64,000 nt of DNA. Source: Flavobacteriales bacterium. Lineage in GTDB: Bacteria > Bacteroidota > Bacteroidia > Flavobacteriales > BACL11. The DNA lies in assembly GCA_018647945.1 (NCBI GenBank), contig JABGSE010000005.1:1491-65490 (forward strand), read 5' to 3'. The position numbers were made by a program, and so were the translations under genes. Positions 15,854 through 39,667 of the stretch are shown here, piece after piece. The notes under the pieces were generated by a model, which saw nothing but the letters and a program-made list of their open reading frames with translations, was not told the DNA's origin and did not search any database. The number at the start of each line of letters is the position of its first letter. The stretch's first letter is position 1.

Positions 15854-15965
15854 AACTGCAAATATAACAATTTAACTAATATTATGAAAATATTTCATAA
15901 TCATTTTATCCGTTCATCAATGAATATAAAGATAATTATTAATGTTATTTATTCCTCTAATTTTA

Positions 15966-15973
15966 TAATTTTG
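15966..15973 (+). promoter_or_regulatory. Bacteroidota-type -7 promoter box (TAATTTTG) for the decarboxylase operon
   Basis: TAnnTTTG match 24 nt upstream of ATG 15997. Confidence 0.4.
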
Positions 15974-15996
15974 TAGAAAATTTCAAAAACCAAAAA

Positions 15997-21449: not shown

Positions 21450-23840
21450 TTATCTTTTTTCAGTAGTATAAACATTATCATTCCACCAAAATAACTGATC
21501 TTTACTTGATCCATATTTAGCAACTGCGTTTTCGAAAGCAGAATTAAACGATTGCATATTAAAAACAGGAATCAATTTTCCAAGAAAATATTTCATATTT
21601 AAATTAGATACTTCTTCTTGTGCGTCTACCGATTCTACTTCATCATCTTCAACTGCAACAACATTAGTTTTTGGATGTGAAGGAGCAATTGTCATTTCAT
21701 CAATTAAGTGAGAAGCTCCAGCAAACTTGTCAATAATAAACATAATATATCTGATATCCACAGAAATTGTTCTTTGTATTTCATTTTCAAAAGCAATATC
21801 TCCACTCATAGCTTCCCAATTTCCATCAAATGCAGTTCCTACAATTTCTCCCCACGCATTAATTACTGGAGAACCAGAATTTCCACCTGTAATATCATTA
21901 TTAGAAATAAAGTTAATTCTGAGGTTTCCGTCTTCATCAGCATATCTGCCATAATCTCCAATTTCGTACAATTCCTTTAATCTTTCAGGAACAATAAACT
22001 CATCATTAGTTGCGTCTTCTTTCTCAATAATACCATCTATTGTGGTGTAAAAATCGTAATGTACCGCATTTCCTGGTTCATAATCTCCCACATTTCCATA
22101 AGTAACTCTCATTGTAGAATTTGCATTCGGATAATATTTTTTATCAGGATTCATTTCTCTCAATCCGGCAACAAACAATCTGTTTCCTTCATCTAATTTT
22201 GATTTTACCAATTTTCTTTTCGAATAAAGATTCTCAATGTAAAAATCGTAAATTGACATAAGAGTAGTAAAAGCAGGATCCTTAGTAATTTTAGATGCAG
22301 ATGGACGAACTAAAAAGCTCATGAATTTTTCTTTAGAAGAAAAAACAGATTTTGTAAATACATTTTTTGCATAATAATCAAAGTCCAATGCTTTAAATCC
22401 TAATAATTGGTTTTCAATTTTCTTAAAAACCGTAGGATGTTGATATTTTGGAACATTGTAATAATACATTTCTAACATTGAAGAAAATAATTCTTGGTCA
22501 ATATCTGCATTATAATTTTTATAAAAATCAATTGCTTGTTTTTTGATATCTCTTATTTGTTGTCTTTTTTCTTGTTCATCTTCCGATAAATTAGAAATTT
22601 GTCTTTCCATTAAAAATGAAAAATACATAATTTCAGCACCCTGAAAAACAGCTTCATTCAAATATGTTCTGGCAATATTTATTTTTCTATTTACATCATA
22701 AGCGTCTTCAATTAAATTAAGGGCTTCTCCATATTTTTCTTTTCTATTATCATCTCCAGTGTTAACCCAATCAGTAAACTGATTTTCAATTTCAACTTTT
22801 TTATCAAGAACTCTCATTCTTTTTAACCCTCTTGACTGCCCGATAAAGTATTTCCAGTAGTTTGATGTTTGTGCATATTTGGCTGCATACTGAATTTTTA
22901 CTCTTTTACTAGCATCCATTCCTGCTTTCATAATAGCAAGTTTTTCTTCTCTAATTTGAACAATAGTTGGATTACTTTGATCTAAAGCTAGTTCAATTCC
23001 ATAAGAAGTTAGATACCTATCCGTACTTCCAGGGAAGCCGAAAATCATAGTATAATCACCATTGTCCACACCATCTAACTGAATAGGTAAATGGTGCTTT
23101 GGAGTAAATGGAATGTTCTCTTCAGAATATTCTGCAGGACTTCCGTCCGGAGCACAATAAACTCTAAATAAAGAAAAATCTCCGGTATGACGTGGCCACA
23201 TCCAGTTATCTGTATCTCCACCAAATTTTCCAATTGAAGAAGGAGGAGCTCCTACTAATCTCACATCATTGTATGTAATATAAGTCATTAAGTAAAATTC
23301 ATTACCTCCAAAGAAAGGTTTTACTCTAGCATTGTAATTTGTTCCTTCTGTTTTTTCTGTTACTATTGTATTGAAAATTGCTCTAAGTGCTGAATTTCTT
23401 TCCGCTTCATCTAGCTCTCCTAATTCTTCTAAAACTCTATCTGTAACACTTTCAATACTTACCAAAAAGGAAGCGAAAAGTCCTTCATTAGGAAGTTCTT
23501 CATCTCTACTCATTGCCCAAAAACCATCTTTTAAATAGTCGTTAGCTACTGTTGAATGTGTCTGAATGACGTCAAAACCACAATGGTGATTGGTAAGCAT
23601 TAATCCTTCAGCAGAAATTATTTCACCCGTACAAAAACCACCCAAAGAAACAATGGCATCTTTAAGTGATGAGTTATTAATATCGTATAAATCTTCTGCC
23701 GAAAGTTGAAGTCCAGAAGATTTCATATCATCTTCATTCATTGCTTGCAAAAGTTGAGGAAGCCACATTCCTTCATCCGCTTTTGCTACCGAGAAGGATA
23801 TGCTAAATAATAATACAATTGATGAAATTCTTTTAATCAT
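21450..23840 (-). CDS. S46 family dipeptidyl-peptidase (DPP7/DPP11-like) with C-terminal extension
   Basis: 796 aa. The signal peptide is followed by ADEGMWLP, then ..LTNHHCG.. (His), ..GGNSGSPVIN.. (Ser) and ..DTDNWMWPRHTGDFS... About 75 extra residues follow the usual ..HLIDEMTI end. Confidence 0.88.
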   Translation of the reverse strand: MIKRISSIVLLFSISFSVAKADEGMWLPQLLQAMNEDDMKSSGLQLSAEDLYDINNSSLKDAIVSLGGFCTGEIISAEGLMLTNHHCGFDVIQTHSTVANDYLKDGFWAMSRDEELPNEGLFASFLVSIESVTDRVLEELGELDEAERNSALRAIFNTIVTEKTEGTNYNARVKPFFGGNEFYLMTYITYNDVRLVGAPPSSIGKFGGDTDNWMWPRHTGDFSLFRVYCAPDGSPAEYSEENIPFTPKHHLPIQLDGVDNGDYTMIFGFPGSTDRYLTSYGIELALDQSNPTIVQIREEKLAIMKAGMDASKRVKIQYAAKYAQTSNYWKYFIGQSRGLKRMRVLDKKVEIENQFTDWVNTGDDNRKEKYGEALNLIEDAYDVNRKINIARTYLNEAVFQGAEIMYFSFLMERQISNLSEDEQEKRQQIRDIKKQAIDFYKNYNADIDQELFSSMLEMYYYNVPKYQHPTVFKKIENQLLGFKALDFDYYAKNVFTKSVFSSKEKFMSFLVRPSASKITKDPAFTTLMSIYDFYIENLYSKRKLVKSKLDEGNRLFVAGLREMNPDKKYYPNANSTMRVTYGNVGDYEPGNAVHYDFYTTIDGIIEKEDATNDEFIVPERLKELYEIGDYGRYADEDGNLRINFISNNDITGGNSGSPVINAWGEIVGTAFDGNWEAMSGDIAFENEIQRTISVDIRYIMFIIDKFAGASHLIDEMTIAPSHPKTNVVAVEDDEVESVDAQEEVSNLNMKYFLGKLIPVFNMQSFNSAFENAVAKYGSSKDQLFWWNDNVYTTEKR

Positions 23841-24931: not shown

Positions 24932-26077
24932 TTATTTTCTAAAATTCCTTCCTTTCCATTCAAACTTAGTGCTAAATGAATAAATGACAATAAAAAATAT
25001 GTAAAAAGAATAAATTATTTCAAATGGTAAAATCCAAATTGCCAAATCCCTTCTTCTGAAAAACTTTAATACAGGTATTAAAAAATTATAATCTGAAATG
25101 TATTTAAAAAATAAAACAAATAATAATAGAAATTTAGTTGAAAAAAGAATTACTGATTCGTGCGGAGTGATAGCAGAAAGAGTTGAAAGAACAGACAAAA
25201 CAACAATACTTACATTTATCAGCAATACTAAAATACTTACAGAAATTGTATCCCAATCCGTGTACGAACCACTTTTTGAGGTCCACCTTTTTCTCTGATT
25301 GATAAAAGATTTCAAATTTGGCTGAGCATCTGTTTTCACAATTGCTTCTCTGTCTTTCACAAATCGAATCCCACTAGGATATTTTACTTTCACATGATGC
25401 ATTAAAAAAACATCATCACCAGAAACTGCAGAATTACTATCGTAAGAATTCATTTCCAAAAAAATAGATTTACGATAAGCCAAATTTGCACCATTACAGA
25501 AAATTCCTTTTCCTCTATTGATTGCTGCAGCGCCAGAACCAATTAAACTTAAAAATTCCAAAGCTTGTATTTTCTGAAAAATATCTTTCTTATAGTGAAA
25601 TTCAACAGGAGCAGAAAGCAACTTTACACTTTTATCAGTAAAATAATTCGCAATTGTTTTAATCCAATTTTCACCTGCTCTACAATCTGCATCTGTACAC
25701 AAAATCACAGATCCATTTGCACATGAGATTCCTTTTTTAATTGCGTTTTTCTTTCCTTGTTCCCCTTCATTCATGCAAATAATTTTCAAATTTTCCCAAC
25801 TTTTAGCAGACTTTTCCAAAATTTTTAAAGTAGAATCTTCCGAATGGTCATTCACCACAATCATCTCAAATCTCTGTTTATCAAAATTCTGATTTTTCAC
25901 ATCTTCTATAATATTCAGAATATTATTTTCTTCATTTCGGCAAGCAACAATTACAGAAATAAAATCTGTATTATTTGCATTTTCTGAAGGAAGAATTGAC
26001 TTCCAAGAATATCGGTACAGAAAAAAAACTTTAAAATACCAACTAAGAAGAAGAATTAAAAAAATATATAAAATCAT
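24932..26077 (-). CDS. family 2 glycosyltransferase (membrane-anchored)
   Basis: 381 aa with ..ISVIVACRNEE.., ..IVVNDHSED.., ..CTDADC.. and ..QRKRW.. motifs of GT2 enzymes, plus C-terminal TM helices. Confidence 0.85.
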   Translation of the reverse strand: MILYIFLILLLSWYFKVFFLYRYSWKSILPSENANNTDFISVIVACRNEENNILNIIEDVKNQNFDKQRFEMIVVNDHSEDSTLKILEKSAKSWENLKIICMNEGEQGKKNAIKKGISCANGSVILCTDADCRAGENWIKTIANYFTDKSVKLLSAPVEFHYKKDIFQKIQALEFLSLIGSGAAAINRGKGIFCNGANLAYRKSIFLEMNSYDSNSAVSGDDVFLMHHVKVKYPSGIRFVKDREAIVKTDAQPNLKSFINQRKRWTSKSGSYTDWDTISVSILVLLINVSIVVLSVLSTLSAITPHESVILFSTKFLLLFVLFFKYISDYNFLIPVLKFFRRRDLAIWILPFEIIYSFYIFFIVIYSFSTKFEWKGRNFRK

Positions 26078-27081
26078 TATTTCTTCCTAAAAAATTTAAG
26101 TGTGAAAACAAAAAACATTCCAATTACAGATGGAATCAATAAATTGATTATCCACAATAAAAATGTTGCAGATAAAATTCCACTAATATTTACAGAAGCT
26201 AATCCAAGAATAACAACTGCTACATAGGCTCTTACCCCTATTTCAGTTATTGCAATTGTTGGAATTACAGAAACAATAAATAACATAGACATCACTAAAA
26301 ACATGACTTCTGTATAGGGAATATTTACTGAACACATTTGCAATAAAATATAATATTGAAAAGTGAAAACCGCATATCGGAAAGCAGAATACAAGAGGAC
26401 TTTGAACAACTCAGAACAATTGTAAAAAGAAAAAACCTCAGAATATTTATGATACTTTTCTAAAAATTTAAGTTTATTCAAAAATACAGTAAATAAAGAC
26501 GTATTAAGAAATAAAAGAAGTAATAACAGATTTAACAATACCAAAACAAAAATGATAACATAAAATGAAATCCCATCAATAGACCAAAACTCTGAAAAAT
26601 CATCTGTATAATTACTCATCACATACACAATCCCTATGCTACCAAATACAATTGTAATGAGTAATTGCGACATACTTCCAATTACGGTAATCAGCACCGC
26701 TTTAATTCTGTCTGCAGTGGACAAACAAAAAACCCTTCCTCCATATTCTCCAATTCTGTTTGGAGTAAAAGCAGAAACGGTTATCCCAGAAAACACAGCC
26801 CTTAATGAATTTAAAACTGAAATATTTTCAATCTTTTTTATTAAAAATCTCCATTTAAGTGACTCCAACAACCAATTGAAAAACATTAAAAATACTACAA
26901 TACAAATTGTAAAGAAATTTTCAGAAAGAAATTCGCTCGATAAGAAAGTCTTCAAATTATAAGATGAACCATTTACAGATTGAACAAATAAATTATCTTT
27001 AAATTGTGTATATAGAAAATAAAGGGATGTTAATACAATCCCAATCTTAATTAAAAAACCAATTGACTTTTTATAATTCAT
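26077..27081 (-). CDS. polytopic membrane protein, lysylphosphatidylglycerol-synthase-TM / flippase-like family
   Basis: 334 aa with about 8 predicted TM helices. ..FSGITVSAFTPNRIGEYGGRV.. resembles the UPF0104/LPG_synthase_TM family that often pairs with GT2 genes. Its TAA shares one nucleotide with the GT2 ATG. Confidence 0.65.
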   Translation of the reverse strand: MNYKKSIGFLIKIGIVLTSLYFLYTQFKDNLFVQSVNGSSYNLKTFLSSEFLSENFFTICIVVFLMFFNWLLESLKWRFLIKKIENISVLNSLRAVFSGITVSAFTPNRIGEYGGRVFCLSTADRIKAVLITVIGSMSQLLITIVFGSIGIVYVMSNYTDDFSEFWSIDGISFYVIIFVLVLLNLLLLLLFLNTSLFTVFLNKLKFLEKYHKYSEVFSFYNCSELFKVLLYSAFRYAVFTFQYYILLQMCSVNIPYTEVMFLVMSMLFIVSVIPTIAITEIGVRAYVAVVILGLASVNISGILSATFLLWIINLLIPSVIGMFFVFTLKFFRKK

Positions 27082-27124
27082 TGCTTAATTTTGAAAAGAC
27101 AATATTACGGAAAATAAGAGAAAA

Positions 27125-27676
27125 TTGAGCAAAGAAAGAATCATATTAGGAATAGATCCTGGAACCAATATTATGGGGTATGGTGTAATTCGTATTATGG
27201 GCAAAAAAATGGAAATGATTCAGATGGGGATTGTCCATATGGAAAAATTAGATGGACACTCACTAAAATTAAAACGAATCTTTGAAAGAACTCTCGAATT
27301 GGTAGATGAGTATAAACCTGATGAAGTCTCCTTGGAGGCTCCATTTTTCGGAAAAAATGTACAATCTATGTTGAAACTTGGGAGAGCTCAAGGGGTAGCA
27401 ATGGCCGCTGCTCTTTACAGAGATGTTCCAATTTTTGAATATACCCCAAAAAAGATAAAAAAATCGGTAACAGGAAATGGAAATGCATCAAAATTACAAG
27501 TTGCTTCGATGTTACAATCGTTATTTAATATTAAAAAAATGCCAAAACACTTGGACGCAACAGATGGATTGGCAGCTGCTGTTTGTCATTATTTTCAGAG
27601 AGATAATACGACTGGAGGGAAAAGTTATTCCAATTGGTCGTCCTTTTTAAAAGACAATCCTGATAAGATTGCTTAA
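27125..27676 (+). CDS. ruvC: crossover junction endodeoxyribonuclease RuvC
   Basis: ..[16 protein letters not shown].., ..[13 protein letters not shown].. and ..[13 protein letters not shown].. are present. The start codon is TTG. Confidence 0.93.
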
Positions 27677-28065
27677 AGGGCTTGTTTTATTTTATCAGCA
27701 ATTTCTATCATTTGCTCAGTTGTAAATTGTTTTTTTGGTCTTTCAAAATTAATATCTGAAATTCCATTTATTGGGACCAAATGAATATGAGCGTGAGGAA
27801 CTTCAAGTCCGATTACTGCAACTCCAATTCTTTCGCAATCAATTACCTTATCCATTGCTTTTGCAATTTCCTGAGAAAACTTCCAAAGTCCAAAATATTC
27901 TTCCGATTCTAAATCAAACAGATAATCTATTTCCTTTTTAGGAATTACCAAAACATGACCCAGTGTTAGTGGAAATGTATCTAAAAATGCCAAATAATTA
28001 TCGTCCTCTGTAATTTTGAAACAGGGGATTTTTCCCTTAACTATTTTTGTAAAAATACTGGACAT
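27673..28065 (-). CDS. HIT family protein
   Basis: 130 aa with a histidine triad (..[11 protein letters not shown]..) and N-terminal ..[15 protein letters not shown]... Confidence 0.9.
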
Positions 28066-28541
28066 TATATTGCTTCAATAGATATTATTTCAAATCTCAT
28101 AATTCCATTTGGAACTTCAATTTCCGCTATTTCTCCAGGAAATTTCCCTAACAACCCTTTCCCAATTGGAGAAGAAACAGATATCTTTTTTAACTTTAAA
28201 TCTGCTTCTGCTTCTGGAACAATTGAATAAGTCATTTCCATATTGTTAGCTGTATTTTTAATCGTAACTTTTGTAAGTAAATGAACAGAAGATGTATCAA
28301 GTTTAGATGTATCAATTACCCTTGCTTTACTGTGTAATTCTTCCAACTTTGCAATTCTGGCTTCCAAATGTCCTTGAGCTTCTTTTGCTGCATCATATTC
28401 TGCATTTTCCGATAAATCTCCTTTATCTCTTGCCTCAGAAATTTGCCTGATAACTGATGGTCTTTCAACTCCTGTCAGATGATCTAATTCATCTTTTAAT
28501 TTCTTTAATCCTTCTTCCGTGAAATATTGTGTATCTTTCAT
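28065..28541 (-). CDS. greA: transcription elongation factor GreA
   Basis: 158 aa with ..EARDKGDLSENAEYDAAKE.. and a C-terminal ..VSSPIGKGLLGK.. FKBP-like domain. Confidence 0.95.
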   Translation of the reverse strand: MKDTQYFTEEGLKKLKDELDHLTGVERPSVIRQISEARDKGDLSENAEYDAAKEAQGHLEARIAKLEELHSKARVIDTSKLDTSSVHLLTKVTIKNTANNMEMTYSIVPEAEADLKLKKISVSSPIGKGLLGKFPGEIAEIEVPNGIMRFEIISIEAI

Positions 28542-28573
28542 AATTCTTATTTATTGATATCGTATTAAACTTC

Positions 28574-28599
28574 AAAAAGGAAGTTTTACCTTCCTTTCT
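28574..28599 (-). terminator. rho-independent terminator after the PorV/PorQ-like gene
   Basis: Stem aaggaag/cttcctt (28577-28583 / 28590-28596), followed on the minus strand by a TTTTT run. Confidence 0.55.
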
Positions 28600-28623
28600 G
28601 AAAAATATGTGTTTGTATTGGTT

Positions 28624-29754
28624 TTATAAATCTATTCTCGCTCCTATTGAATGCGAACCATTAAATGGTTGTGTAGCTCTATAAGAATAATCTAAACCAA
28701 AAGTAGATCCGTTACCCATTGGTAATTCTACTGTAAAACCAGCAGTTGGGCCTCTAAGTGCAGTTGTTCTGTAGGATTCTTTATCATTATCCTCTGCAAA
28801 TCCTTGAGAATATCTAATTCCATCTTCATATACATAACCAGTTCTGATCATAAAGTAATCTTTGTAAGAATATTCACAACCTAATCGGTATTGATCTTTT
28901 TGGAAAGAATTAGAAGTAAAAGTAGTCGCACCGGTTAACCTATTGTCTCTATTAATATTAACATCATAAGTTATTCCAATATTGAAAAGTGCTGGCAAAT
29001 CAAAGAATGAAGACCTTTGTTCAACAGTCATTTTAAAATCGTCCGCACTTCCAACTATTCCTCTAAAGGAAAGTCCATCACCATTAAACGACATCCTTGG
29101 TCCCCAGTTTTTAAGTGAAATACCAAATTTCAAATTATCCTCTGCTCCTGTAATATATTGTATTCCTGCGTCAAAAGCAAGACCATTAGCACTTACATCC
29201 GAAATTTGTTCGGATATCATTCTTATTGTCGCTCCTCCATAAATACTATTAGAAAAAATATGCGCATAAGACACTCCAATATTCATAAACTTTGGAGAGA
29301 ATGTTCCGATACCTCCATCTGGAAGTTCGACAGTAGTAATTTCAATATCACCAAAATCCAAGGACATTACTCCAAATCCTAATACTCCTGATTCTCCCAT
29401 TTTTTGAGAGAAACCAAAAGTACTAATTGTACTTACTGAATTATCCGAATCAAATAATTTGTTACCATACTGTAACCAAGAAGTTTGACTAAAAATTAAT
29501 TCTGTTTTCTCAGTAAATGCCAATCCAGCAACATTTGAATACTGACCTTCCAAACCTTCAACTCCAGCAACATTTGCACCAGCCCATCCAGAAGATCTGG
29601 CAAAAGGATTAATTAGTAATTCAGAAGCTCCTGCGGAACCCGCTCTAATAGCTTCTTCTTGAGAAAAACTCTCTTTAGCAGGGATTAATACAATTGCAGA
29701 TACTACTACAACTTTTATCCAATGAGTTATTTTTTTCATATTTAAAATTTTCAT
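28624..29754 (-). CDS. PorV/PorQ-family outer-membrane beta-barrel protein
   Basis: 376 aa with a signal peptide. The N-terminal block GSAGASELLINPFARSSGWAGANVAGVEGLEGQYSNVAGLAF matches my memory of the conserved PorV/PorQ opening motif. The rest shows alternating beta-strand periodicity. The start lies 10 nt after the upstream stop. Confidence 0.6.
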   Translation of the reverse strand: MKILNMKKITHWIKVVVVSAIVLIPAKESFSQEEAIRAGSAGASELLINPFARSSGWAGANVAGVEGLEGQYSNVAGLAFTEKTELIFSQTSWLQYGNKLFDSDNSVSTISTFGFSQKMGESGVLGFGVMSLDFGDIEITTVELPDGGIGTFSPKFMNIGVSYAHIFSNSIYGGATIRMISEQISDVSANGLAFDAGIQYITGAEDNLKFGISLKNWGPRMSFNGDGLSFRGIVGSADDFKMTVEQRSSFFDLPALFNIGITYDVNINRDNRLTGATTFTSNSFQKDQYRLGCEYSYKDYFMIRTGYVYEDGIRYSQGFAEDNDKESYRTTALRGPTAGFTVELPMGNGSTFGLDYSYRATQPFNGSHSIGARIDL

Positions 29755-29764
29755 TTTTTATTTT

Positions 29765-32700
29765 TTAGAATGTATCTAAATCAATTGGTCGTAATACGCC
29801 AAACCATTTTAATATTTTAGGCTCCGCAAGTGAAGGGGAATCTATATGAATAATATACAAACCACTTGCAATAGGAATACCATAATTATTTTTCAAATCC
29901 CAATCAACAGAAGTTTTATTATCTGATTTTTTAATTTTTTTAATTAATGTACCACTTATTGTAAATATCTGAATGGTTGTATTTTTAGGTAAATTAGTAA
30001 TCTTTATTCTATTATCTAACTGACTTGTTTCGTACTGAGAATAACCGTAATAAGGATTTGGCACTACATTGATTAATTCAGCAGCATTATGAGCTGTAGT
30101 TTCATCCTTAGTAGTAGACATCAAATCTGAAGTATTAAAACTATAGTATGGATTAAAATTATTTAATGGTAGCTGAGCAATAACTCTAGCTTTTGACGAG
30201 CTTGCCGAAAAAGATGTAGTAGTTGCAGTAAATGTTTCTCCAACTTGATACTGAGTTCCATCGTGAGTTACTTTTTTCCCTCCATAAACTTTTGGTCTGG
30301 TTTGAGAATGTTTCACATTATGAGATTGTAAATTATTATCGGCTACCAAATATGTATTCCCAATCACTAAATCATCATTTTTATTCAATATTGCATCAAT
30401 ATCAACATTTACATAAGTATTGTAGGAGCTGTTTACTCTTAATTTTACTGTAGCAACATTTTTACCGTCTTTTCCAAATAACTGTGAATTACTTCCATTT
30501 GCCAATAATGGCATTCCTACCCATGCAGTATGCTGAAATACAGAAGTAATAGCTACTTTCTGAGCAGTAGAATCAGAAAAATCTTCTGAAAGAATATTAT
30601 GAATCCAAGCACCTTTGTCATAATTAGGACTAAGTACTGCATCTAAATAATCATCTTCCGCTTTTACTGAAGCATCTCCACCCATTACATAAATAAAGTG
30701 TTTACCACCCAATAAGAAACTACCTCCTGAAGCTGTATTAGTTTCAGGGTCATATTGTGGAAATTCTTCTGTTAATAAATTAGAGGTTGGGTTCCAAACC
30801 ATGTCTCTACCGTTTTCTTCTGTTAACCACGAATCTTCTGCGAAAATAATATTTAATCTTTCTCCTGTTTCCAGATTGATAGCATAACCAGGGAACCAAC
30901 TCATTCCCTCTGTTCCACTTGCATCTGCAGTAACAGAAACCCCAGTTTTATATTTACTTAAAACTTCTGTTTTGCTTAAAGAAGCACTTTTTCTTAATCC
31001 TAACTTTCTTTGTCCTCCTTCTGCCAAGCTCATATTTTCCTGTACTTCCACCACCACACATCTTGTCCACATTGATGTATCTCTGGTAAATACAATATCT
31101 ACTGAAGGAATAATATCCATAGAAGAATAAGGTGATGCAGTATAGTATCCTGGTGCTGGACCATCATAATAGTGAGATGTTAAACGATAAGGTGCCCAAG
31201 TACCACCGGTTACCTCACCAACACCTACATTTACAGTTTGTTCTACAGCTGTTTCATAAATTCCATTCGGATCATCATCTATAAAATAATCACTCAATCT
31301 GTCTTCATCTTCATGTTCAAAAGACCCAGCTCTTATCCAGTTTAATCCCCAGAAATTACCATTTTCATCATCTCTATCTGGCACACCAGTCAACCATTTG
31401 TCGTAAACATCATCAAACTCAATGGTACCCGAAATTAATCCGTTTGATGATTCAATAATAGGATTGGCAGCAGGATTAACCGCTTGCTTTATTTTGATAG
31501 AAAAACCAAAATTTGCAAATAGTTTTTCCTCTCCAATATCAATTGGTTTTGTAGATGCTGCAACAGTCACTCCATTTTCGTTAAGTAAAGACCATCTTCC
31601 GTAAGAAGTAAGTACGTTCTGAACTTCTATTGGTTCTGAAAGTTGAATAGAATAACTTTTTCCGGTAATTTTCATTGGGTCCACCACCGAAACTTGAATT
31701 GGTCCTGCACCTTTTTTATAAACCGGATTTTCAATTCTACCATTTGCCAAAATATCAACAACCGACATAGAGTCTAACTCTAAATTAATTGAGCCATTTC
31801 CTGTTCCTTCAATTCTTTCAATTTTTGCTCCTGTACCATAATTAGAACCTAAAATAGTTCCTCCATTTTCAGGGTCAATCTGGTGAGGAATTGCAGAATA
31901 AGTTTGTATATTTCTTCTCCCAGCTATATACGGCTGATTTCTACCATCATACAAAGGATTATTTACATCATAAGGATCTAAATTAATTTCTGCAGGAGTA
32001 AATCCGTAAGCAATTGACATAAAATGGTATGTTTTATGGTTTACCAAACGGGTATTACCAAGTGCAAATTTATCATCTAATAATTGAAAAGAATATTCCA
32101 CACCATTATCCACCGAACCAAGTACTCCCGATTCTAATACTGAAGGTACTTCTTCAATAGGAATATAAACATTTAATGTTGGATCCAAATATTGATTCAC
32201 AATTCCTGATACTCCATCATCAATATCAGAACGGAACACCATTCTTGCTTTATCAGGATCATCTAAATCTGTTACAGAAACCGTAGCATCTTTTAATTGG
32301 AAAACAACATATCCTTGAAATTTATAGTTCTGATTTTCAAGATTGGAAGCCAAAGTAATGTATGGATCTTTTTCAGAGTATGTTTCGTTATAATTATTTG
32401 ATGATGTAGAATTGGTTAAAGAAATAATCAACTCTTTATCTAACTCTCTGATATTTAAATCTGGAGCATCTGGCCCATTCATCATATTAAAGTTATTATC
32501 AAATAAGGCTTGTGCCTCTCTATCATATACTTTTACAAGTTGAACTGAAGCAGCATTTCCGCCTGATTTTGCTCTGGCCCACACTACACCTGTAGTAATT
32601 GTATTTACAGCTCCTGGTTGTAAAGTAAACGGACCAGCTGATTGTATAAATCTTCTATCGGCTGGACTATTACCAGCAGTTACTTCTGTCCATTCTTGTC

Positions 32701-34018
32701 CTGGGAACATTGGATCCGAAACTCCGGGGAACATAAAGTTACAAAGTTCGGTTGTTGCTCCAGGGCCTTCTCCTTTACCATTTCCTCCGAAAGTCATAGG
32801 CACATTATCTCTCCATATTCCTCTTAAATAATTATAAATATCTGTACCTGAATTTGGATTTCCTCTTACTGTTTGATCATTATTATAATAAACAAATTTC
32901 GACATAATAATTTGTTCACCTAGCTCATCAATTGTTCCATCTCTATCATTGTCTATCCCATCACCAGCATCTGCAAGTGGTCCCTGGAAAAAGTCAACTC
33001 CAATAGCTGGAGGATTAAAACCATAACCAGCAGCACCTTCATCTTCCGCATCTCCATTGTAGCAAATTCCTAAACCAAGATTCACATCACAACCTACATA
33101 ATCATCTAAATAAAATCCTAAATCCGGATCTACCCACTGTCCGAAATAAGTATCAGTTAAAGGTAAAGTAGAGCGGTTTATAATTTTATAGTTGTAAAAA
33201 GTCATATCATTAATTTCATTATCAGCAGTAAATGCAAAAGCTTGTGCATGTATTTCTAATCCAATTGCCTCTTCTCCAAATTCTGTATGAATATTTCCTT
33301 TATCATTAAATACCCACCAAAGAGTCTGATCTCCAAAAAGTTTTGCACTTTCATTGTCACCCGTAATGTTATAGTCAGGATAATCTCCATCAAAAGGTGA
33401 ATAATTTCCATCACCATTCTTATCAAAGAAGGGTGCTAAGTATTGAGAATATCCACTTGCTTCTGCATTACCAGAAGCTGGCCAATTTTTAATAGATTCT
33501 GGTATCAAATCATCAGTATAAGTAGGGTCAATTCCATGTCTAGCAACAAATTCTTCTACATCCGCTCTGTCTAATTTGAAGTGTTTGTCCCATTCCAAAC
33601 ATTCGCTAGCATCAATAGTAGCGGTAGCGGTATTTAAAGGTCCTGGCCAAAAATCAGAACCAGATTGTCTGTAAGTCATAGCAGCTACTTTCAACTGACC
33701 ACCAGCATCAACCCCACCAATCCAAAGCGCTCCGGCAAATAATGAGTTTAATCCGGAACCAATAGGGATTTCATATTGAGCATCACTTAAATTCCACCAC
33801 ATATCTCCACCTCCTAATATCATTGCTCTTACATTGTTTACATCCAAGTCAACTTGTGAAGATGCTTCAGCACATCCCGCGGCTACCCTTGCATGAGTAA
33901 AGGAAGACATATTAGAATTTACATTTTCTCTTGCAATAACTCCAACACTTAATAAAGCAAGTGATAGGGTTAATATTTGTCTGAATTTTATATTCATAAA
34001 TGATTTATTTTCTGTCAT
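29765..34018 (-). CDS. large secreted protein of unknown function with T9SS type A C-terminal sorting domain
   Basis: 1417 aa with a signal peptide (a likely start is MNIKFRQ at 33997). It contains a DGIDNDRDGTIDE calcium-binding-like loop. The C-terminal part ..VVPNPYYGYSQYE..IKITNLP..IQIFTISGTLI..ASGLYIIHI.. looks like the Por secretion tail (type A CTD). I recognise no catalytic family. Confidence 0.65.
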   Translation of the reverse strand: MTENKSFMNIKFRQILTLSLALLSVGVIARENVNSNMSSFTHARVAAGCAEASSQVDLDVNNVRAMILGGGDMWWNLSDAQYEIPIGSGLNSLFAGALWIGGVDAGGQLKVAAMTYRQSGSDFWPGPLNTATATIDASECLEWDKHFKLDRADVEEFVARHGIDPTYTDDLIPESIKNWPASGNAEASGYSQYLAPFFDKNGDGNYSPFDGDYPDYNITGDNESAKLFGDQTLWWVFNDKGNIHTEFGEEAIGLEIHAQAFAFTADNEINDMTFYNYKIINRSTLPLTDTYFGQWVDPDLGFYLDDYVGCDVNLGLGICYNGDAEDEGAAGYGFNPPAIGVDFFQGPLADAGDGIDNDRDGTIDELGEQIIMSKFVYYNNDQTVRGNPNSGTDIYNYLRGIWRDNVPMTFGGNGKGEGPGATTELCNFMFPGVSDPMFPGQEWTEVTAGNSPADRRFIQSAGPFTLQPGAVNTITTGVVWARAKSGGNAASVQLVKVYDREAQALFDNNFNMMNGPDAPDLNIRELDKELIISLTNSTSSNNYNETYSEKDPYITLASNLENQNYKFQGYVVFQLKDATVSVTDLDDPDKARMVFRSDIDDGVSGIVNQYLDPTLNVYIPIEEVPSVLESGVLGSVDNGVEYSFQLLDDKFALGNTRLVNHKTYHFMSIAYGFTPAEINLDPYDVNNPLYDGRNQPYIAGRRNIQTYSAIPHQIDPENGGTILGSNYGTGAKIERIEGTGNGSINLELDSMSVVDILANGRIENPVYKKGAGPIQVSVVDPMKITGKSYSIQLSEPIEVQNVLTSYGRWSLLNENGVTVAASTKPIDIGEEKLFANFGFSIKIKQAVNPAANPIIESSNGLISGTIEFDDVYDKWLTGVPDRDDENGNFWGLNWIRAGSFEHEDEDRLSDYFIDDDPNGIYETAVEQTVNVGVGEVTGGTWAPYRLTSHYYDGPAPGYYTASPYSSMDIIPSVDIVFTRDTSMWTRCVVVEVQENMSLAEGGQRKLGLRKSASLSKTEVLSKYKTGVSVTADASGTEGMSWFPGYAINLETGERLNIIFAEDSWLTEENGRDMVWNPTSNLLTEEFPQYDPETNTASGGSFLLGGKHFIYVMGGDASVKAEDDYLDAVLSPNYDKGAWIHNILSEDFSDSTAQKVAITSVFQHTAWVGMPLLANGSNSQLFGKDGKNVATVKLRVNSSYNTYVNVDIDAILNKNDDLVIGNTYLVADNNLQSHNVKHSQTRPKVYGGKKVTHDGTQYQVGETFTATTTSFSASSSKARVIAQLPLNNFNPYYSFNTSDLMSTTKDETTAHNAAELINVVPNPYYGYSQYETSQLDNRIKITNLPKNTTIQIFTISGTLIKKIKKSDNKTSVDWDLKNNYGIPIASGLYIIHIDSPSLAEPKILKWFGVLRPIDLDTF

Positions 34019-34031
34019 AATTTATTTCTTC

Positions 34032-37000
34032 TTAAAAAGTAAGTGTTAATCCCATTCTGAACATTCTTGGTAAACTATAATGTGACGGATTGTTTACAGC
34101 CAAAGAATACAGATAAATAAAAGATTCAGGATTGTTTCTTGCTAAAATATCGTTTTGAGATTCAGTTGCAGTTAAATATCCATCATCTTCCGGATTTCCG
34201 GTAGCTCTGTAAACACTTATAATGTTTCTTGCATCAAATAGATTTTGTATTTGTAAGTATGCATTTACAGAAGATGATTTGGTTTTACTCCATTTAATTT
34301 CAAAGTTTTTGTTGAATTTGGCATTCATACGGAATTGCCAAGGTAATCGTGAACCATTAATACTTCCATCCAAAGTAGAACGGTCGTTAATACCAGAAGC
34401 CGCTTCTTGTGTAACATTCGACTGACGGCTATAAGGTGTACCCGAACCGGCAGACAACATAATATTTGCTCCTGCATCTTCAAGTATTTTCCATTTCCCT
34501 ATAACAGGTCCTTTATATTTGTCTCCTCTTTTATATCTGTAATCCACAGAAGAAGAAATTGCATGACGCTGATCGTTAGAAAGTGGAATTGTAGTTCTTA
34601 AGTTTGGCTGACCTGTATTTACCAAACTATAACCTGAAGAAGCAGATGAACCTGTTCCGTCAGCAAATTGAATTGTATAGTTTGATGTCATCTGAATTCT
34701 TCCTGTTCTTCTTAAATCGTAACTTATTGAGAATCCTTTTGATGTCCCAAAATCAATATTTTGATACATCATATATGTTGCAGGATACGCTCCCAATACA
34801 TTTGTAACCTGAACCATATCTCTCATTTCCTTATAGAATAAAGACATCTTTAGCGCTGAGGAGATGGTTAATTTCTTTGCAAAACCAATTTCATAATCAA
34901 TTGTCGTTTCTGGTTTTAAGTCAGGGTTATTTAAAAGTGCTCCTACTTGACTTTCCATAAATAAGTAATCCATTGGTTCAATTCTGTTAGCAGATGGTCG
35001 TTGAGTTAACACATCATAATGAGCGAAAAACTGAGCTTCATCCGAAATAGGGAAAGAAAATGCAATCCTTGGCATAAAAGACAATTGTGGTTCATAATCT
35101 TTAAAAGCATCTACTGTTTTAAATCCTTTTACAGCAAATTCTGGATTGCTCAGTAAAGGAGCTATTTTACCATCTGCAGCTTCCGACAGTAAAGTAGGGT
35201 CCGAAATTTGAGTACCTACCGAATTGTACCAGTCATCTCCATTTCTGTACCCAACAATTTTTGTTGGACTTTCTACATCATCAACATACACCACAAAATT
35301 ATCTCCAATTGCAGATGGGTGACTACCTCCTTCAGTTAATCCCTTAGCTTCATCTGTTCCGGCTAAATTAGGATTGTACATTAAATACTTATCTTTTAAT
35401 ACCATCTGATTTGCATCATAATTACTAATTCGTAATCCTATATTAAACATTAAATCGTTTATGGCAAATTTATCCTGTATGTAACCTGCAGAATAAGTCG
35501 GAGCAAATGCAGCAATATTTCTATCTAAATTTGCTACTGTAATAATCTTTTCATCTGGAGACCCACAATTTTCACATAAATCTCCATCTGCGTTTCTTGT
35601 TCCGAAAAAGGCTGCTAAGGAATTAGGATTATTGTTTATTTGTCCATAAGCATCATATCCATAATAGGAAACATAAGCACTTCCATTGTTTATTAATTCT
35701 GATGGAGAAAACCAATTTAGTTGAAAATCTTCAGGAGACAATTCATCAATATCAATAAATTCAAGCTGTGAATAATTCAAATTAGATCTTAAGCTATCAT
35801 CAAATACTGATTGTTCTTCTGCAATAAACAATCTATTATAGTTTATTGTATCTAGGAAAATTCCATTTTCATCCTCTAGAGGTAATGGATTACTTAAATC
35901 TCTTTCTAATATGTGTCTGTTTGTCAAACTTCTCATTAATCCCCATAGCCCTGTTGTACCTACTGACCAAGCCATATCTTTTCTGTATTCTTGTTCAAAA
36001 CCCATAGATATTTCATGGTCACCAATATCAGCAGAAGAAGCAAACTTAAATGATTGTTGATTGTTTTGAGCGTAGTAAGCTCCATTATACCTTGCTCCCC
36101 AACCTCCAAATAAAGAATATACATTTGCAGGGCCATCACCATTTCTCAATCCTTGTCCTTGCAAATCGTTAGGAGTTCTGATTACACCATCCGCTCCATA
36201 TCCGGAAATGTATTGAGAGGCCATATTGTATTGAGAATAAATATCGTAATAAGCATTTGTGTAAGCTGCAGCTTCTGGGTTTTTTGTATTAGCGTCATCA
36301 AATGTATAAGAAGTATCTCTCCACCCTAATAATACTTTCCCTACATAAGGAGTGCTGTTTGCTGTATCGTAAACTGCCATGTTAAACCTACTATATACAT
36401 TTTCTCTTTCTGTTGTAAACTTACCTACATATCCATAATCAAATAAATTATATTCGTGCCTGGCATCAAATGTTTCGTAATAGTTATTGGTGTAATTGTA
36501 CTGAACAGTAAAAAATGCATTTTTAATCAGATTGGAACTACTCTCGCTATTGGATTCTTCATTACCAAATTTTTGAGTTAATTTACCAACCGCTCTCCAA
36601 GTTTTTTGTGTAGAATTACTGTTGTTGTCCCAAGAAAACATGGACCTCCAATAGTTAGAATTTTTATTGTTACTATTATAATGTGTGGCGCTTAAAGAAA
36701 GGAATGTGTTTTTAGCAGGTTTTATATCCAATTTGGCAGTAAAATTATACCTATTTTGTTGCATATTTTGTTTTGCCTGAACATTTTCGTAATCTTCTGA
36801 GGTTAGAAAATCAGAAGTACTTAAAAACCCTGCTGCTGCATTTGGTGCAATTTGAAAAGGAGTAGATTTTAATTCTTGCAGTACATCATCTTTTACTTTC
36901 CAAACTCCAATTGCTGAAGGGTCTGTATCATCAACTTTTCTAATTTCTCCTGAAATAAAGAATCCGATAATTGAATTTCCTTTGGTACCATCCGCATTTG

Positions 37001-37790
37001 TTTTTCTTAATAGAGGACCTGAAAGCACCCCTCCAATCAAATGATAATTGTAATCATCAAACAAAGCAGAAGTTTCATATTCTATTCCTCCATAAAACTT
37101 ATTAGAAGGTCCTTTAGTGGTAATTTCAATAATCCCCCCTGTTACATCTCCATATTTTGCAGGTAAACCTCCAGTAACAACTGTCATTTGCTCAATAGCT
37201 GATGTAGGCACTCCTAAGGAACCTCTCACCCTTACCCCGTCTACAATATATGCAGTGGAAGAAGATCTGGATCCTCTCATATTTAAAGCGTCACCCTCAT
37301 CTCTTTGGTATACACCAGCAGTTGCAGCGGCTATGGAATTAATACTTTTTGTTGGTACAGCCAAAATCTCTGCAGAAGTTTTTGTTTCTCCAGACATTAC
37401 ATTCTGATCAATTAATGGTTTTCGGAAAATCCTTATATCAACTTCATCAATCAGTACACCTGCTGTCATTTGTATTGCATTTTCTCCTTTAAGAGATGTA
37501 GTTCTGTTTGCTGAAATAACTACACTAGGCATTGAAAATGTAGTATATCCAATAAAAGAAGCTTTTACGGTATAAATACCTGGTTCAATAGGTTTAATTG
37601 TAAAGTTACCTTGCCCATCAGTGACTGTTCCATCTATTTGGTTTCCATCTTTTTCAATTATCACATTGATATAACCCATGGACTTACCAGTTGATTTATC
37701 TGTTATCGTTCCTTTAAGGGTTCCTGTCTGAGCGAATGCAATTACGGAAAAAAATCCTAAAATTGCTGTTAAATATATTTTTCTAAACAT
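34032..37790 (-). CDS. oversized TonB-dependent-receptor-like outer-membrane barrel with CarboxypepD_reg-like N-domain
   Basis: The start is set at MFRKIYLTAILGFFSVIAFAQ. The N-terminus GTLKGTITD..GYINVII..GNFTI..GIYTVKASFIGY is the carboxypeptidase-regulatory-like fold. A plug-like region follows (..MRGSRSSSTAYIVDGVRV..GGIIEITTK..). The protein ends in ..GLTLTF with a terminal Phe. No SusD-like gene follows. Confidence 0.8.
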   Translation of the reverse strand: MFRKIYLTAILGFFSVIAFAQTGTLKGTITDKSTGKSMGYINVIIEKDGNQIDGTVTDGQGNFTIKPIEPGIYTVKASFIGYTTFSMPSVVISANRTTSLKGENAIQMTAGVLIDEVDIRIFRKPLIDQNVMSGETKTSAEILAVPTKSINSIAAATAGVYQRDEGDALNMRGSRSSSTAYIVDGVRVRGSLGVPTSAIEQMTVVTGGLPAKYGDVTGGIIEITTKGPSNKFYGGIEYETSALFDDYNYHLIGGVLSGPLLRKTNADGTKGNSIIGFFISGEIRKVDDTDPSAIGVWKVKDDVLQELKSTPFQIAPNAAAGFLSTSDFLTSEDYENVQAKQNMQQNRYNFTAKLDIKPAKNTFLSLSATHYNSNNKNSNYWRSMFSWDNNSNSTQKTWRAVGKLTQKFGNEESNSESSSNLIKNAFFTVQYNYTNNYYETFDARHEYNLFDYGYVGKFTTERENVYSRFNMAVYDTANSTPYVGKVLLGWRDTSYTFDDANTKNPEAAAYTNAYYDIYSQYNMASQYISGYGADGVIRTPNDLQGQGLRNGDGPANVYSLFGGWGARYNGAYYAQNNQQSFKFASSADIGDHEISMGFEQEYRKDMAWSVGTTGLWGLMRSLTNRHILERDLSNPLPLEDENGIFLDTINYNRLFIAEEQSVFDDSLRSNLNYSQLEFIDIDELSPEDFQLNWFSPSELINNGSAYVSYYGYDAYGQINNNPNSLAAFFGTRNADGDLCENCGSPDEKIITVANLDRNIAAFAPTYSAGYIQDKFAINDLMFNIGLRISNYDANQMVLKDKYLMYNPNLAGTDEAKGLTEGGSHPSAIGDNFVVYVDDVESPTKIVGYRNGDDWYNSVGTQISDPTLLSEAADGKIAPLLSNPEFAVKGFKTVDAFKDYEPQLSFMPRIAFSFPISDEAQFFAHYDVLTQRPSANRIEPMDYLFMESQVGALLNNPDLKPETTIDYEIGFAKKLTISSALKMSLFYKEMRDMVQVTNVLGAYPATYMMYQNIDFGTSKGFSISYDLRRTGRIQMTSNYTIQFADGTGSSASSGYSLVNTGQPNLRTTIPLSNDQRHAISSSVDYRYKRGDKYKGPVIGKWKILEDAGANIMLSAGSGTPYSRQSNVTQEAASGINDRSTLDGSINGSRLPWQFRMNAKFNKNFEIKWSKTKSSSVNAYLQIQNLFDARNIISVYRATGNPEDDGYLTATESQNDILARNNPESFIYLYSLAVNNPSHYSLPRMFRMGLTLTF

Positions 37791-37896
37791 AGGTATATAA
37801 ATGTTAGTGTGTTTATAATTCAAAGGCGGTAAAGGTAATAACTTTTATAAATCAGACAAACAGATTTCTTTTTTATTTTATTTGTAAAATTGCAAT

Positions 37897-38310
37897 ATGA
37901 AAAAACTAAGTAATATTATTTGTTTCCTTGTTGTATTATCATCCTGTGGTGATAAAAATGATTACATAAGAGAAGTATATGTAAACATTGAGATTCCTGT
38001 AAATCAACCAGAATATTCGGATTTGAACGCAATTGGAAATTCAATTTTTGTAACTGGAGGTGTGCAAGGCATCATCATTTATCATTCCAATATTAATCAA
38101 TACAGAGCTTACGACAGAAACTGCAGCTTTGAACCTTCCGAAAATTGTGCTGTAATCGATTCGATAAATGCAACTGTAGCAGCTTGCGGATGTTGTACAT
38201 CAAAATTCCTATTGGACCAAGGAGGTATAACAGCAAACGGACCAGCATTACTATCGTTAAAAGAATATTTCACTACATTTTCTGGAGGAATACTTCACAT
38301 TAAAAACTAA
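37897..38310 (+). CDS. small lipoprotein with Rieske-like fold lacking the His ligands
   Basis: 137 aa with a lipobox (VVLSSCG). ..DRNCSFEPSENC..x14..ACGCCTSKFLLDQGGITANGPA.. aligns by eye to the Rieske CxH..CPxHGxxF..G....GPA pattern, but with His replaced by Phe and Cys. Confidence 0.45.
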   Translation: MKKLSNIICFLVVLSSCGDKNDYIREVYVNIEIPVNQPEYSDLNAIGNSIFVTGGVQGIIIYHSNINQYRAYDRNCSFEPSENCAVIDSINATVAACGCCTSKFLLDQGGITANGPALLSLKEYFTTFSGGILHIKN

Positions 38311-38311
38311 A

Positions 38312-38333
38312 AAATCCCGATTTCTCGGGATTT
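38312..38333. terminator. hairpin terminator between convergent genes
   Basis: Stem aaatcccga/tcgggattt with loop tttc, flanked by an A-run and a T-rich tract. It lies between the lipoprotein stop (38310) and the ahcY stop (38360). Confidence 0.6.
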
Positions 38334-38359
38334 CTTTAATCTAATATCTATTGTCTAAA

Positions 38360-39667
38360 CTAGTATCTGTAATATTCCGGCTTATACGGTCCTTCAACCG
38401 TTACTCCAATATACTCTGCTTGATCCGGTCTTAAAACTTCTAATTCTACCCCAATTTTAGCAAGGTGTAATCTGGCTACTTTTTCATCCAAATGTTTAGG
38501 AAGCATATATACTTCATTGTTGTAATTATCCGTATTGTTCCATAATTCCAATTGAGCCAATACTTGATTCGTAAATGAATTAGACATCACAAAAGAAGGA
38601 TGTCCAGTAGCACAACCTAAATTTACTAATCTACCTTCAGCAAGTAAAATAATATCTTTTCCGTCAATAGTGTACATATCCACCTGAGGCTTTACAGTAT
38701 CTTTAGTGTGTCCCCAATTATCATTTAACCAAGCTACATCAATTTCATTGTCAAAATGACCAATATTACAAACAATCGTTTTGTCTTTCATCCCCTCAAA
38801 ATGACGAGCCTGAATAATATCTTTATTTCCTGTTGTTGTTACAATGATATCTGCATTTTTACATGCATCATCCATTCTTTTAACGGCAAAACCATCCATT
38901 GCTGCTTGTAAAGCGCAAATAGGATCAATTTCTGTAACTATCACTCTAGCTCCCGCACCTCTAAGTGAAGCAGCGGAACCTTTACCAACATCCCCATAAC
39001 CGGCAACCACAGCAACTTTCCCCGCCATCATTACATCAGTTGCTCTTCTAATTGCATCAACTAACGACTCTTTACAACCGTACTTATTATCAAATTTTGA
39101 TTTAGTAACTGAATCGTTAATATTAATAGCAGGTGTTAAAAGTGTTCCTTTCTCCATTCTTTCATAAAGTCTATGAACTCCAGTAGTTGTTTCTTCCGAA
39201 AGACCCTTGATGTCCTCTACCATTTCTGGGAATCTATCAAATACCATATTCGTTAAATCTCCACCATCATCTAAAATCATATTTAATGATTTCCCCCCTT
39301 CAAAAGCAGTTAGAGTTTGTAAAATACACCAATCAAATTCTTCTTCATTTAACCCTTTCCAAGCAAAAACAGGAACTCCTGTAGCTGCAATTGCCGCAGC
39401 TGCCTGATCTTGCGTAGAAAATATATTACAAGACGACCAACTTACCTCAGCTCCTAAATGAGTTAATGTCTCAATTAATACTGCGGTTTGAATAGTCATA
39501 TGCAAACAACCAGCAATCCTTGCTCCAGCAAGTGGTTTACTATCTCCAAATTCTTCTCTAATCGACATTAATCCCGGCATTTCCGCTTCAGCTAATATCA
39601 TTTCTTTTCTTCCCCAATCTGCTAAGGAGATGTCTTTTACTTTATAATTCATTGTTTCCGTTTCCAT
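38360..39667 (-). CDS. ahcY: adenosylhomocysteinase
   Basis: ..[15 protein letters not shown].., an NAD-binding motif (..[13 protein letters not shown]..) and ..GHFDNEID.. are present. An alternative start lies at 39652. Confidence 0.95.

Follow-up and report, generated by a model that had tools for sequence, protein, structure and literature searches.

The 64,000-nt stretch of contig JABGSE010000005.1 analyzed here (the window) comes from the chromosome of a marine Flavobacteriales bacterium, and it carries three adjoining minus-strand genes, which the evidence set out below supports as one operon-like unit. These encode a TonB-dependent transporter (TBDT), here labeled G1; a 1417-aa predicted type IX secretion system (T9SS) cargo protein, labeled G2; and an outer-membrane barrel of the PorV/PorQ family, labeled G3. 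Each of the three parts is of a known kind, and their combination is undescribed and very widespread, the same gene order being kept in about 70 GTDB species. We propose that the trio represents a single outer-membrane assembly in which G2, exported by the T9SS, is held on G3 and serves the importer G1, a reading to which we give an even chance of being correct. The features of the window that bear on this proposal are as follows:

34032..37790, minus strand: G1, TonB-dependent transporter, 1252 aa from the ATG at 37790, with the C-terminus ...GLTLTF
37491..37721, minus strand: CarboxypepD_reg-like N-terminal extension of G1 (Pfam PF13620, 53.5 bits)
37134..37385, minus strand: plug of G1 (Pfam PF07715, 36.2 bits; cut-off, 23.9)
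34239..36167, minus strand: beta-barrel region of G1 (Pfam PF00593, TonB_dep_Rec, 55.9 bits; cut-off, 27; open reading frame residues 553-1195)
29765..34018, minus strand: G2, 1417-aa secreted protein that is not a lipoprotein, with a predicted Sec signal peptide cleaved near GVIA/RE
32219..33877, minus strand: most conserved part of the G2 body, residues ~48-600, with the motifs GGDMWW, NDMTFYN, and DGIDNDRDG
29768..30073, minus strand: C-terminal domain (CTD) of G2, residues ~1316-1417, a T9SS CTD of unusual subtype by its modeled fold
28624..29754, minus strand: G3, PorV/PorQ-family outer-membrane barrel, 376 aa
28570..28603, minus strand: hairpin in the interval between G3 and greA, by its folding energy the likely end of the operon
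37791..37896, 106 nt: interval separating G1 from a divergently transcribed 137-aa lipoprotein gene, presumed to hold the promoter of the trio

The three genes and their products

The open reading frames (ORFs) as called mechanically, all on the minus strand, cover 34032..37823 (G1), 29765..34018 (G2), and 28624..29754 (G3), leaving 13 nt between G1 and G2 and 10 nt between G2 and G3. These coordinates confirm the three closely spaced minus-strand genes of the original prediction, a reading of the sequence that preceded this analysis, and support its view of them as one operon-like unit. The terminator that it placed at 28574-28599 was borne out as a 14-bp hairpin at 28570-28603 with a folding energy of -17.7 kcal/mol (z = -6.3; none of 200 shuffled sequences was equally stable), although a scan for consensus terminators after G3 did not detect it. 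A scan for consensus promoters was uninformative, returning as many promoters as expected from shuffled sequence, and an Rfam search of 27000-39000 returned no riboswitch, leader, or other element.

The mechanical ORF of G1 begins at a TTG at 37823. We take the ATG at 37790 as the real start, which gives the N terminus MFRKIYLTAILGFFSVIAFAQ, a plausible signal peptide, and a length that agrees with the earlier estimate of about 1250 aa for a protein made up of a CarboxypepD_reg domain, a plug, and a barrel, with no SusD partner. All three domains exceed their Pfam cut-offs, and no SusD-like domain is present in any neighbor of G1; the plug and barrel, together with the terminal F, mark G1 as a TonB-dependent transporter. 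About 320 residues separate the plug from the barrel region matched by Pfam. When a profile of 16 orthologs was searched against PDB, the plugs of Cir, PirA, PfeA, and Fiu were matched, as were, for the N-terminal domain, the corresponding domains of a TBDT and a SusC homolog in 6ytc and 9hfj. The plug is preceded by a TonB-box-like stretch, LIDEVDIRIFRKPLID, with DEVDIRIFRKPLID as the candidate box, of which only the E and KPL.D are well conserved among 47 orthologs, KPL.D being almost invariant. The identification of G1 as a SusC/RagA-type protein with a SusD partner was considered and rejected, as no SusC/RagA model appears among its NCBIfam matches at E <= 0.01 and no SusD-like gene adjoins it.

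By its model scores, G3 is a paralog within the PorV/PorQ family that is neither PorV nor PorQ proper. It scores 135.5 bits on the NCBIfam family model PorV_fam (NF033709; cut-off, 90), with residues 42-375 aligned to positions 3-325 of the 326 in the profile, and far less on the PorV equivalog NF033710 (64 bits versus a cut-off of 250, the alignment being limited to the N-terminal half) and the PorQ equivalog NF033711 (54.4 bits versus 220). The PorV/PorQ-type N-terminal motif (..NVAGLAF), from which the family had originally been read, is present in G3 and conserved in 16 orthologs. It had been allowed at the outset that G3 might prove to be a FadL or other barrel. This did not hold: besides passing the PorV/PorQ model, the profile of the 16 orthologs matched Flavobacterium johnsoniae PorV (6h3i_F) in PDB with E = 5.8e-13, far more strongly than the FadL-type TodX (E = 0.025), and a FadL-type barrel was rejected on this ground. 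Subunits of the Bacteroidota machinery for beta-barrel assembly (BAM) were checked since BamG is FadL/PorV-like, and they were found to be unrelated to the trio.

The body of G2 has no match to any Pfam or NCBIfam model, the sole hit of the protein being Por_Secre_tail at the C terminus, and sequence and profile searches against PDB gave no relative beyond the CTD. The prior description of G2 as a 1417-aa protein with a T9SS CTD and no recognizable catalytic family therefore stands. Column conservation per 50-residue block is 0.60-0.89 over residues ~48-600, reaching at least 0.73 in all blocks except one, and residues 750-1300 are far more variable (0.41-0.68). For residues 30-1229, 67 sequences yielded a confident AlphaFold2 model of mostly beta structure (predicted local distance difference test [pLDDT] of 88.3; predicted template modeling score [pTM] of 0.74). 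Neither PorU nor PorZ (5m11) is among the 50 Foldseek PDB matches listed for this body. PorU was rejected as an identity for G2, for which there is no PorU model match, no C25 peptidase match, and no PorU-like fold in the body, the resemblance being confined to the CTD; PorZ was rejected because there is no PorZ model match and no propeller fold in the body, 5m11 matching the CTD fragment only. The family itself is very large, comprising 7788 clusters (50% identity) at E <= 0.001 and 2778 at E <= 1e-30, and almost all cluster names are "hypothetical." One 1687-aa member (P0157 / P0270) is annotated by NCBI as a "YCF48-related protein," suggesting that some Bacteroidia have the G2 body joined to a BNR/propeller-type domain.

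The tail of G2, as modeled, is a T9SS CTD of a divergent subtype. It passes TIGR04183 (24.1 bits; cut-off, 23) and fails Pfam PF18962 (17 bits; cut-off, 27). In an AlphaFold2 model of residues 1150-1417 (268 aa), pLDDT is ~82-93 at fragment residues 190-260, which span the last ~80 residues of the domain. The top Foldseek PDB match of this CTD is PorZ (5m11; E = 4.6e-6, root mean square deviation of 3.0 Å, 105 columns), with further matches to PorU (6za2) and to the translocon-bound CTD of NucA (8glk_D; TM of 0.68 to the 75-residue CTD chain). As the matches are to the CTDs of PorZ, PorU, and NucA, the G2 tail is a genuine T9SS CTD by fold. It follows the pattern VVPNPYY.YS.YE..QLDNR.KITNLP ... 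DWDLKN..GIPIASG.Y.IH ... KWFG..RP.DLD.F, with an insertion after the PNP motif and a C-terminal extension, KWFG..RP.DLD.F, which hardly varies across the family; the tail KWFG..RP.DL..F is present in nearly all trio-type G2 proteins. Conservation of the CTD (0.71-0.86) is above that of the preceding 500 residues, which is unexpected for an export tag of the ordinary, cleaved kind. Relatives of the G2 body with a classical, Pfam-recognized Por_Secre_tail CTD also exist (P0232, P0237, P0260, and P0263, from loci L082, L085, L086, and L087), and two of them additionally contain PKD domains. All four of those examined stand alone, with neither a TBDT nor a PorV-like neighbor, and the presence of a private barrel thus goes with the special subtype of CTD. 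A further relative, P0249 (locus L084), has an intermediate CTD and is placed after a LytTR two-component pair.

Conservation and joint divergence of the trio

A scan of GTDB with one genome per species identified, by two peptide motifs, 535 species with a G2 relative, from which 79 loci were kept. In every kept locus with enough flanking sequence, G2 has G1 immediately upstream and G3 immediately downstream on the same strand, with identities of 40-76%. The trio order is kept in about 70 GTDB species and also in two cultured members of Cytophagales (Flexibacter flexilis DSM 6793 and Adhaeribacter soli); the three genes are thus co-conserved in related genomes, a point on which the original prediction had hinged. 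Across 71 species, the median gaps are 19 nt between G1 and G2, 21 nt between G2 and G3, and 72 nt from there to greA. The closest species representatives of the window are uncultured Flavobacteriales metagenome-assembled genomes with ~70% protein identity, and mis-binning of contigs almost certainly accounts for a few loci labeled Thalassomonas or Synechococcus.

From their sequences, G1, G2, and G3 clearly diverge in step: in 47 genomes, their pairwise identities correlate with one another at r = 0.93-0.96, as against 0.67-0.74 with GreA and 0.33-0.34 with the HIT protein, values that are inflated by the common phylogeny and because the trio proteins are longer. Conservation of the trio (0.60-0.66, versus 0.67 for GreA) is unusual for large surface proteins. 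At three loci (L059, L061, and L062), a second G2 paralog lies right after G3, giving the order G1-G2-G3-G2'-greA (e.g., L062:7932-12035 and 13488-17570); the two G2 copies are 67% identical, and their CTDs are almost identical.

The trio lies in an old, stable block of the core genome. Its flanks in the window are housekeeping genes, with greA, a HIT protein gene, and ruvC downstream and the gene for S-adenosylhomocysteine hydrolase upstream, and the flanks of the synteny block extend over 24932-28541 and 37897-39667 (compared in loci L002-L081). In Flavobacteriales and in Adhaeribacter soli, the order of the block is S-adenosylhomocysteine hydrolase, G1-G2-G3, greA, HIT, ruvC (on the opposite strand), LPG_synthase_TM, a family 2 glycosyltransferase (GT2), and an OppC-like permease. 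A gene order kept this deep for seemingly unrelated genes is unusual.

The proposed surface assembly and its alternatives

In the assembly we propose, G2 would reach the periplasm by Sec and then cross the outer membrane by the T9SS via its CTD. G3 would be a cargo-specific barrel that recognizes the special CTD subtype, serving as a private shuttle and probably also as the permanent anchor of G2, in the manner of PorQ with PorZ and of PorV with PorU, and so keeping the ~150-kDa G2 at the surface next to G1. The conserved N-terminal half of G2 would capture, and perhaps process, a substrate and pass it to G1, which would import it with TonB energy, in a division of labor in which the role of G2 is akin to that of SusD and surface glycan-binding proteins (SGBPs) or of BtuG. 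From gene-level facts that are solid (the gene arrangement, the families, the fold of the CTD, the co-conservation, the divergence in step, and the link between CTD subtype and barrel), we infer all the physical steps, namely, the dependence on the T9SS, the retention of the CTD, the contacts of G2 with G3 and of G3 with G1, and import rather than export.

The best matches of the G2 CTD, those of PorZ and PorU, belong to proteins whose CTDs are kept on PorQ and PorV, which we count in favor of the proposal. A 2023 review describes the PorU CTD as staying on PorV and the PorZ CTD on PorQ without being removed, and it speculates that cognate PorV-like barrels shield CTDs from cleavage (PMC10202324). 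Like the PorZ-PorQ and PorU-PorV pairs of Porphyromonas gingivalis, the trio combines a type A CTD protein with a PorV/PorQ-family barrel on which it is proposed to be held. Unlike them, its cargo has a body unrelated to the propellers of PorZ or the peptidase of PorU, its barrel is of a third subfamily, its cargo and barrel genes are adjacent, and a TBDT is part of the unit. A parallel in gene arrangement is seen with type B cargo, which, in a 2025 study of F. johnsoniae, uses dedicated PorP/SprF shuttles (PMC12618676); the type B cargo gene adjoins the gene for its own dedicated barrel, and this barrel specifies both secretion and final location (PMC12618676, PMC9143113). The G2 gene likewise stands beside its own barrel gene, although its CTD is type A-like and G3 belongs to the PorV/PorQ family and not to PorP/SprF.

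On the uptake side, BtuG is the surface partner of the transporter BtuB. As in BtuB-BtuG and in SusCD/RagAB, G1 is a TonB-dependent barrel with an N-terminal extension that is genetically coupled to a large surface partner thought to capture substrate. In contrast to those partners, G2 is not a lipoprotein and is neither SusD-like nor BtuG-like, and we propose that it is delivered by the T9SS and tethered by G3. A connection between TonB-dependent receptors (TBDRs) and the T9SS has itself been described: PorF (PG0534) is a TonB-dependent-receptor-like T9SS component with unknown partners, whose mutant resembles porQ and porZ mutants (PMC12704123), and its ~91-kDa Cytophaga hutchinsonii homolog, CHU_1606, co-immunoprecipitates with PorV (PMC8564354). 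Our likening of G1 to these as a receptor linked to the T9SS is by description only, and, unlike G1, neither is known to be encoded beside a cargo or a PorV paralog. The literature searched contained no paper characterizing a PorV-family paralog coupled to one cargo and a TonB-dependent transporter, in keeping with the earlier assertion that the arrangement is uncharacterized.

A comparable row of genes is found in Rhodothermus marinus, where the alginate locus has three genes annotated in succession as TonB-dependent receptor, type A sorting protein of the T9SS, and PorV/PorQ family protein, adjoining alginate lyases, and where the authors do not comment on these genes (PMC9530828). In this locus the order of annotated families is identical to that of the trio, and the xylan locus, where a TBDR (Rmar_1070) and a hypothetical protein with a Por CTD (Rmar_1071) are followed by the uncharacterized Rmar_1072 (PMC6987092), matches in part; the likeness is one of annotated gene layout. 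The R. marinus proteins (TBDR, hypA, and hypB) also differ in being smaller (934, 727, and 352 aa), in lying within inducible glycan loci, and in occurring in more than one copy. The two loci indicate that the architecture recurs in glycan-uptake contexts outside Bacteroidota. The link between CTD subtype and barrel, the divergence in step, and this Rhodothermus layout together lend indirect support to a SusD/SGBP-like role for G2.

If the proposal is true, two hallmarks of the Bacteroidota outer membrane, secretion by the T9SS and uptake driven by TonB, would be joined in one conserved machine, and the idea of a cognate barrel for each cargo would extend from type B to type A signals. The very large G2 family has no Pfam domain, solved relative, or assigned function and is retained even in small marine Flavobacteriales genomes, with one locus on a 2.1-Mb chromosome. 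On a wider and distinctly tentative view, T9SS cargo on private PorV-family barrels might be a second, SusD-independent way of outfitting TBDTs across the Fibrobacterota-Chlorobiota-Bacteroidota (FCB) group, with the trio as an ancient core version, retained beside greA in Flavobacteriales and Cytophagales, that imports an indispensable substrate and with different subtypes of type A CTD being read by different PorV paralogs. There are cultured carriers of the trio (Flexibacter flexilis, Adhaeribacter soli, and Catalinimonas alkaloidigena) and a known substrate at the Rhodothermus alginate locus, and the hypothesis is therefore directly testable.

Several observations weigh against the proposed assembly. 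The greA and HIT genes follow the trio in nearly all genomes and are as syntenic as the trio itself, and ruvC, the LPG_synthase_TM gene, the GT2 gene, and the OppC-like permease gene often follow too, even in Adhaeribacter; therefore, gene order alone is weak proof of a functional link. In this respect, the original interpretation was only partly upheld: its operon unit, the family assignments, the standing of G3 as a paralog, and the co-conservation all survived, and its support from gene order came out weaker, since greA, HIT, and often ruvC are equally syntenic. The inflation of the identity correlations and the restriction of the Rhodothermus likeness to gene layout, both mentioned above, count on the same side. 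The G2 relatives with a classical CTD may be a separate paralog clade, and the 2025 F. johnsoniae study states that all type A CTDs use PorV (PMC12618676). Finally, the Foldseek PDB matches of the G2 body are weak and partial (E ~1e-6, TM of 0.1-0.2), which leaves ligand binding by G2 unproven. They are to glycoside hydrolase (GH) enzymes of the GH94, GH116, GH15-like, and GH63 types, which consist of an N-terminal beta-sandwich and an (alpha/alpha)6 barrel. Since the G2 model has few helices, unlike these (alpha/alpha)6 enzymes, we read the matches as a likeness to an accessory sandwich of carbohydrate enzymes, a hint that the G2 body may bind a glycan. That the imported substrate is itself a glycan is a weak guess, drawn from these fold matches and from the Rhodothermus context.

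One alternative is that the trio serves not nutrient import but housekeeping of the envelope or the T9SS, as a lineage-specific counterpart of PorF (TonB-dependent-receptor-like), PorZ (CTD retained), and PorQ (barrel), a set whose action comes late in type IX secretion, for instance in the supply or import of glycan or lipopolysaccharide material for surface attachment. Such a role, which we consider unlikely, would suit the core-genome site between S-adenosylhomocysteine hydrolase and greA/HIT/ruvC and the conservation at the level of GreA, as well as the structural closeness of the G2 CTD to PorZ and the match of G3 to PorQ as well as to PorV. It would also accord with the similar partial phenotype of porF, porQ, and porZ mutants in P. 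gingivalis, where the partners of PorF are unknown (PMC12704123), and with the co-immunoprecipitation of a TBDR with PorV in C. hutchinsonii (PMC8564354). However, G3 reaches only 54 bits on the PorQ equivalog against a cut-off of 220, and G2 has neither a PorZ or PorU match among hidden Markov models (HMMs) nor a propeller or PorZ fold match in its body. The 1252 aa of G1 also contrast with the ~91 kDa of CHU_1606, and the similar layout in Rhodothermus sits within glycan-utilization loci. The stand-alone T9SS cargoes with a G2 body indicate, on the other hand, that this body can work without a transporter, and some genomes have a second G2 paralog after G3 with a single G1. Both facts would be expected if G2 and G3 were a self-contained surface unit (an adhesin, an enzyme, or a coat protein with an anchor of its own) and G1 were unrelated and merely co-transcribed. 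We nonetheless find this quite improbable, given that G1 is never apart from G2 in ~70 species of two orders, the two genes being a median of 19 nt apart, that it follows the divergence of G2 as closely as G3 does (r = 0.96), and that a TBDR heads the similar row of genes in the Rhodothermus loci.

Myxococcus Oar acts outward for the protease PopC, and proteins of the Oar type have the domain order CarboxypepD_reg, plug, and large barrel. G1 has this same order and could conceivably work outward in the manner of Oar, aiding the export or assembly of G2. This is very improbable in our estimation, as G2 itself carries a T9SS export signal of the correct fold and no Oar-type model is among the Pfam or NCBIfam matches of G1. 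It had also been foreseen that the trio might turn out to be nothing other than an ordinary porU-porV pair, here beside an unrelated receptor. G3 does belong to the PorV family, and in C. hutchinsonii porU (CHU_3237) and porV (CHU_3238) have adjacent locus tags (PMC8564354). The score of G3, however, is 64 bits where the PorV equivalog has its cut-off at 250, and G2 has no match to the PorU model or to C25 peptidases and no PorU-like fold in its body. Moreover, the order to which the Cytophagales trio carriers belong has a documented, separate porU-porV pair (CHU_3237/3238). An ordinary porU-porV pair was accordingly rejected on the HMM scores of G3 and G2, and we regard its chance of being correct as close to nil.

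Other features of the window

Of the 47 ORFs in the window that reach 120 aa, 33 were scanned (all but one of those of at least 300 aa, together with the ORFs flanking the trio), and no SusD-like, porU, or porV gene is among these 33. The other genes include mutS, secA, alaS, murA, and dnaJ, and the GC content is ~31%.

A predicted lipoprotein gene at 37897-38310 on the plus strand, divergent from G1, encodes a cysteine-rich protein of 137 aa that begins MKKLSNIICFLVVLSSCG and has no Pfam or NCBIfam match. It is kept at the same position in 58 of the 79 loci and is absent from both Cytophagales loci, and it could be a fourth, lineage-specific partner of the trio.

Some other genes of the window are reminiscent of the systems discussed here. 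On the minus strand, 12560-15853 encodes a 1097-aa protein with LTD, CotH, CHB_HEX_C, and PKD domains and a type B T9SS sorting domain (CHU_C / TIGR04131); no PorP/SprF gene is among the ORFs adjoining it, its neighbors being two tRNA genes and a decarboxylase gene. A second TonB-dependent receptor of 761 aa, with plug and barrel and without an NCBIfam equivalog, is encoded at 43250-45535 on the plus strand and falls in the same size class as the PorF/CHU_1606-type receptors of the T9SS literature. A Dpp7-like dipeptidyl-peptidase (21450-23840, minus strand; 772 bits, under the equivalog cut-off) and a GldA-like ABC ATPase (49327-50241, plus strand; 188 bits, under the GldA cut-off) are encoded less than 25 kb from the trio, and neither is conserved beside it. 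Between the convergent genes for the 137-aa lipoprotein and S-adenosylhomocysteine hydrolase, a 12-bp GC-containing hairpin at 38309-38336, with T-runs on both strands, is likely a bidirectional terminator.

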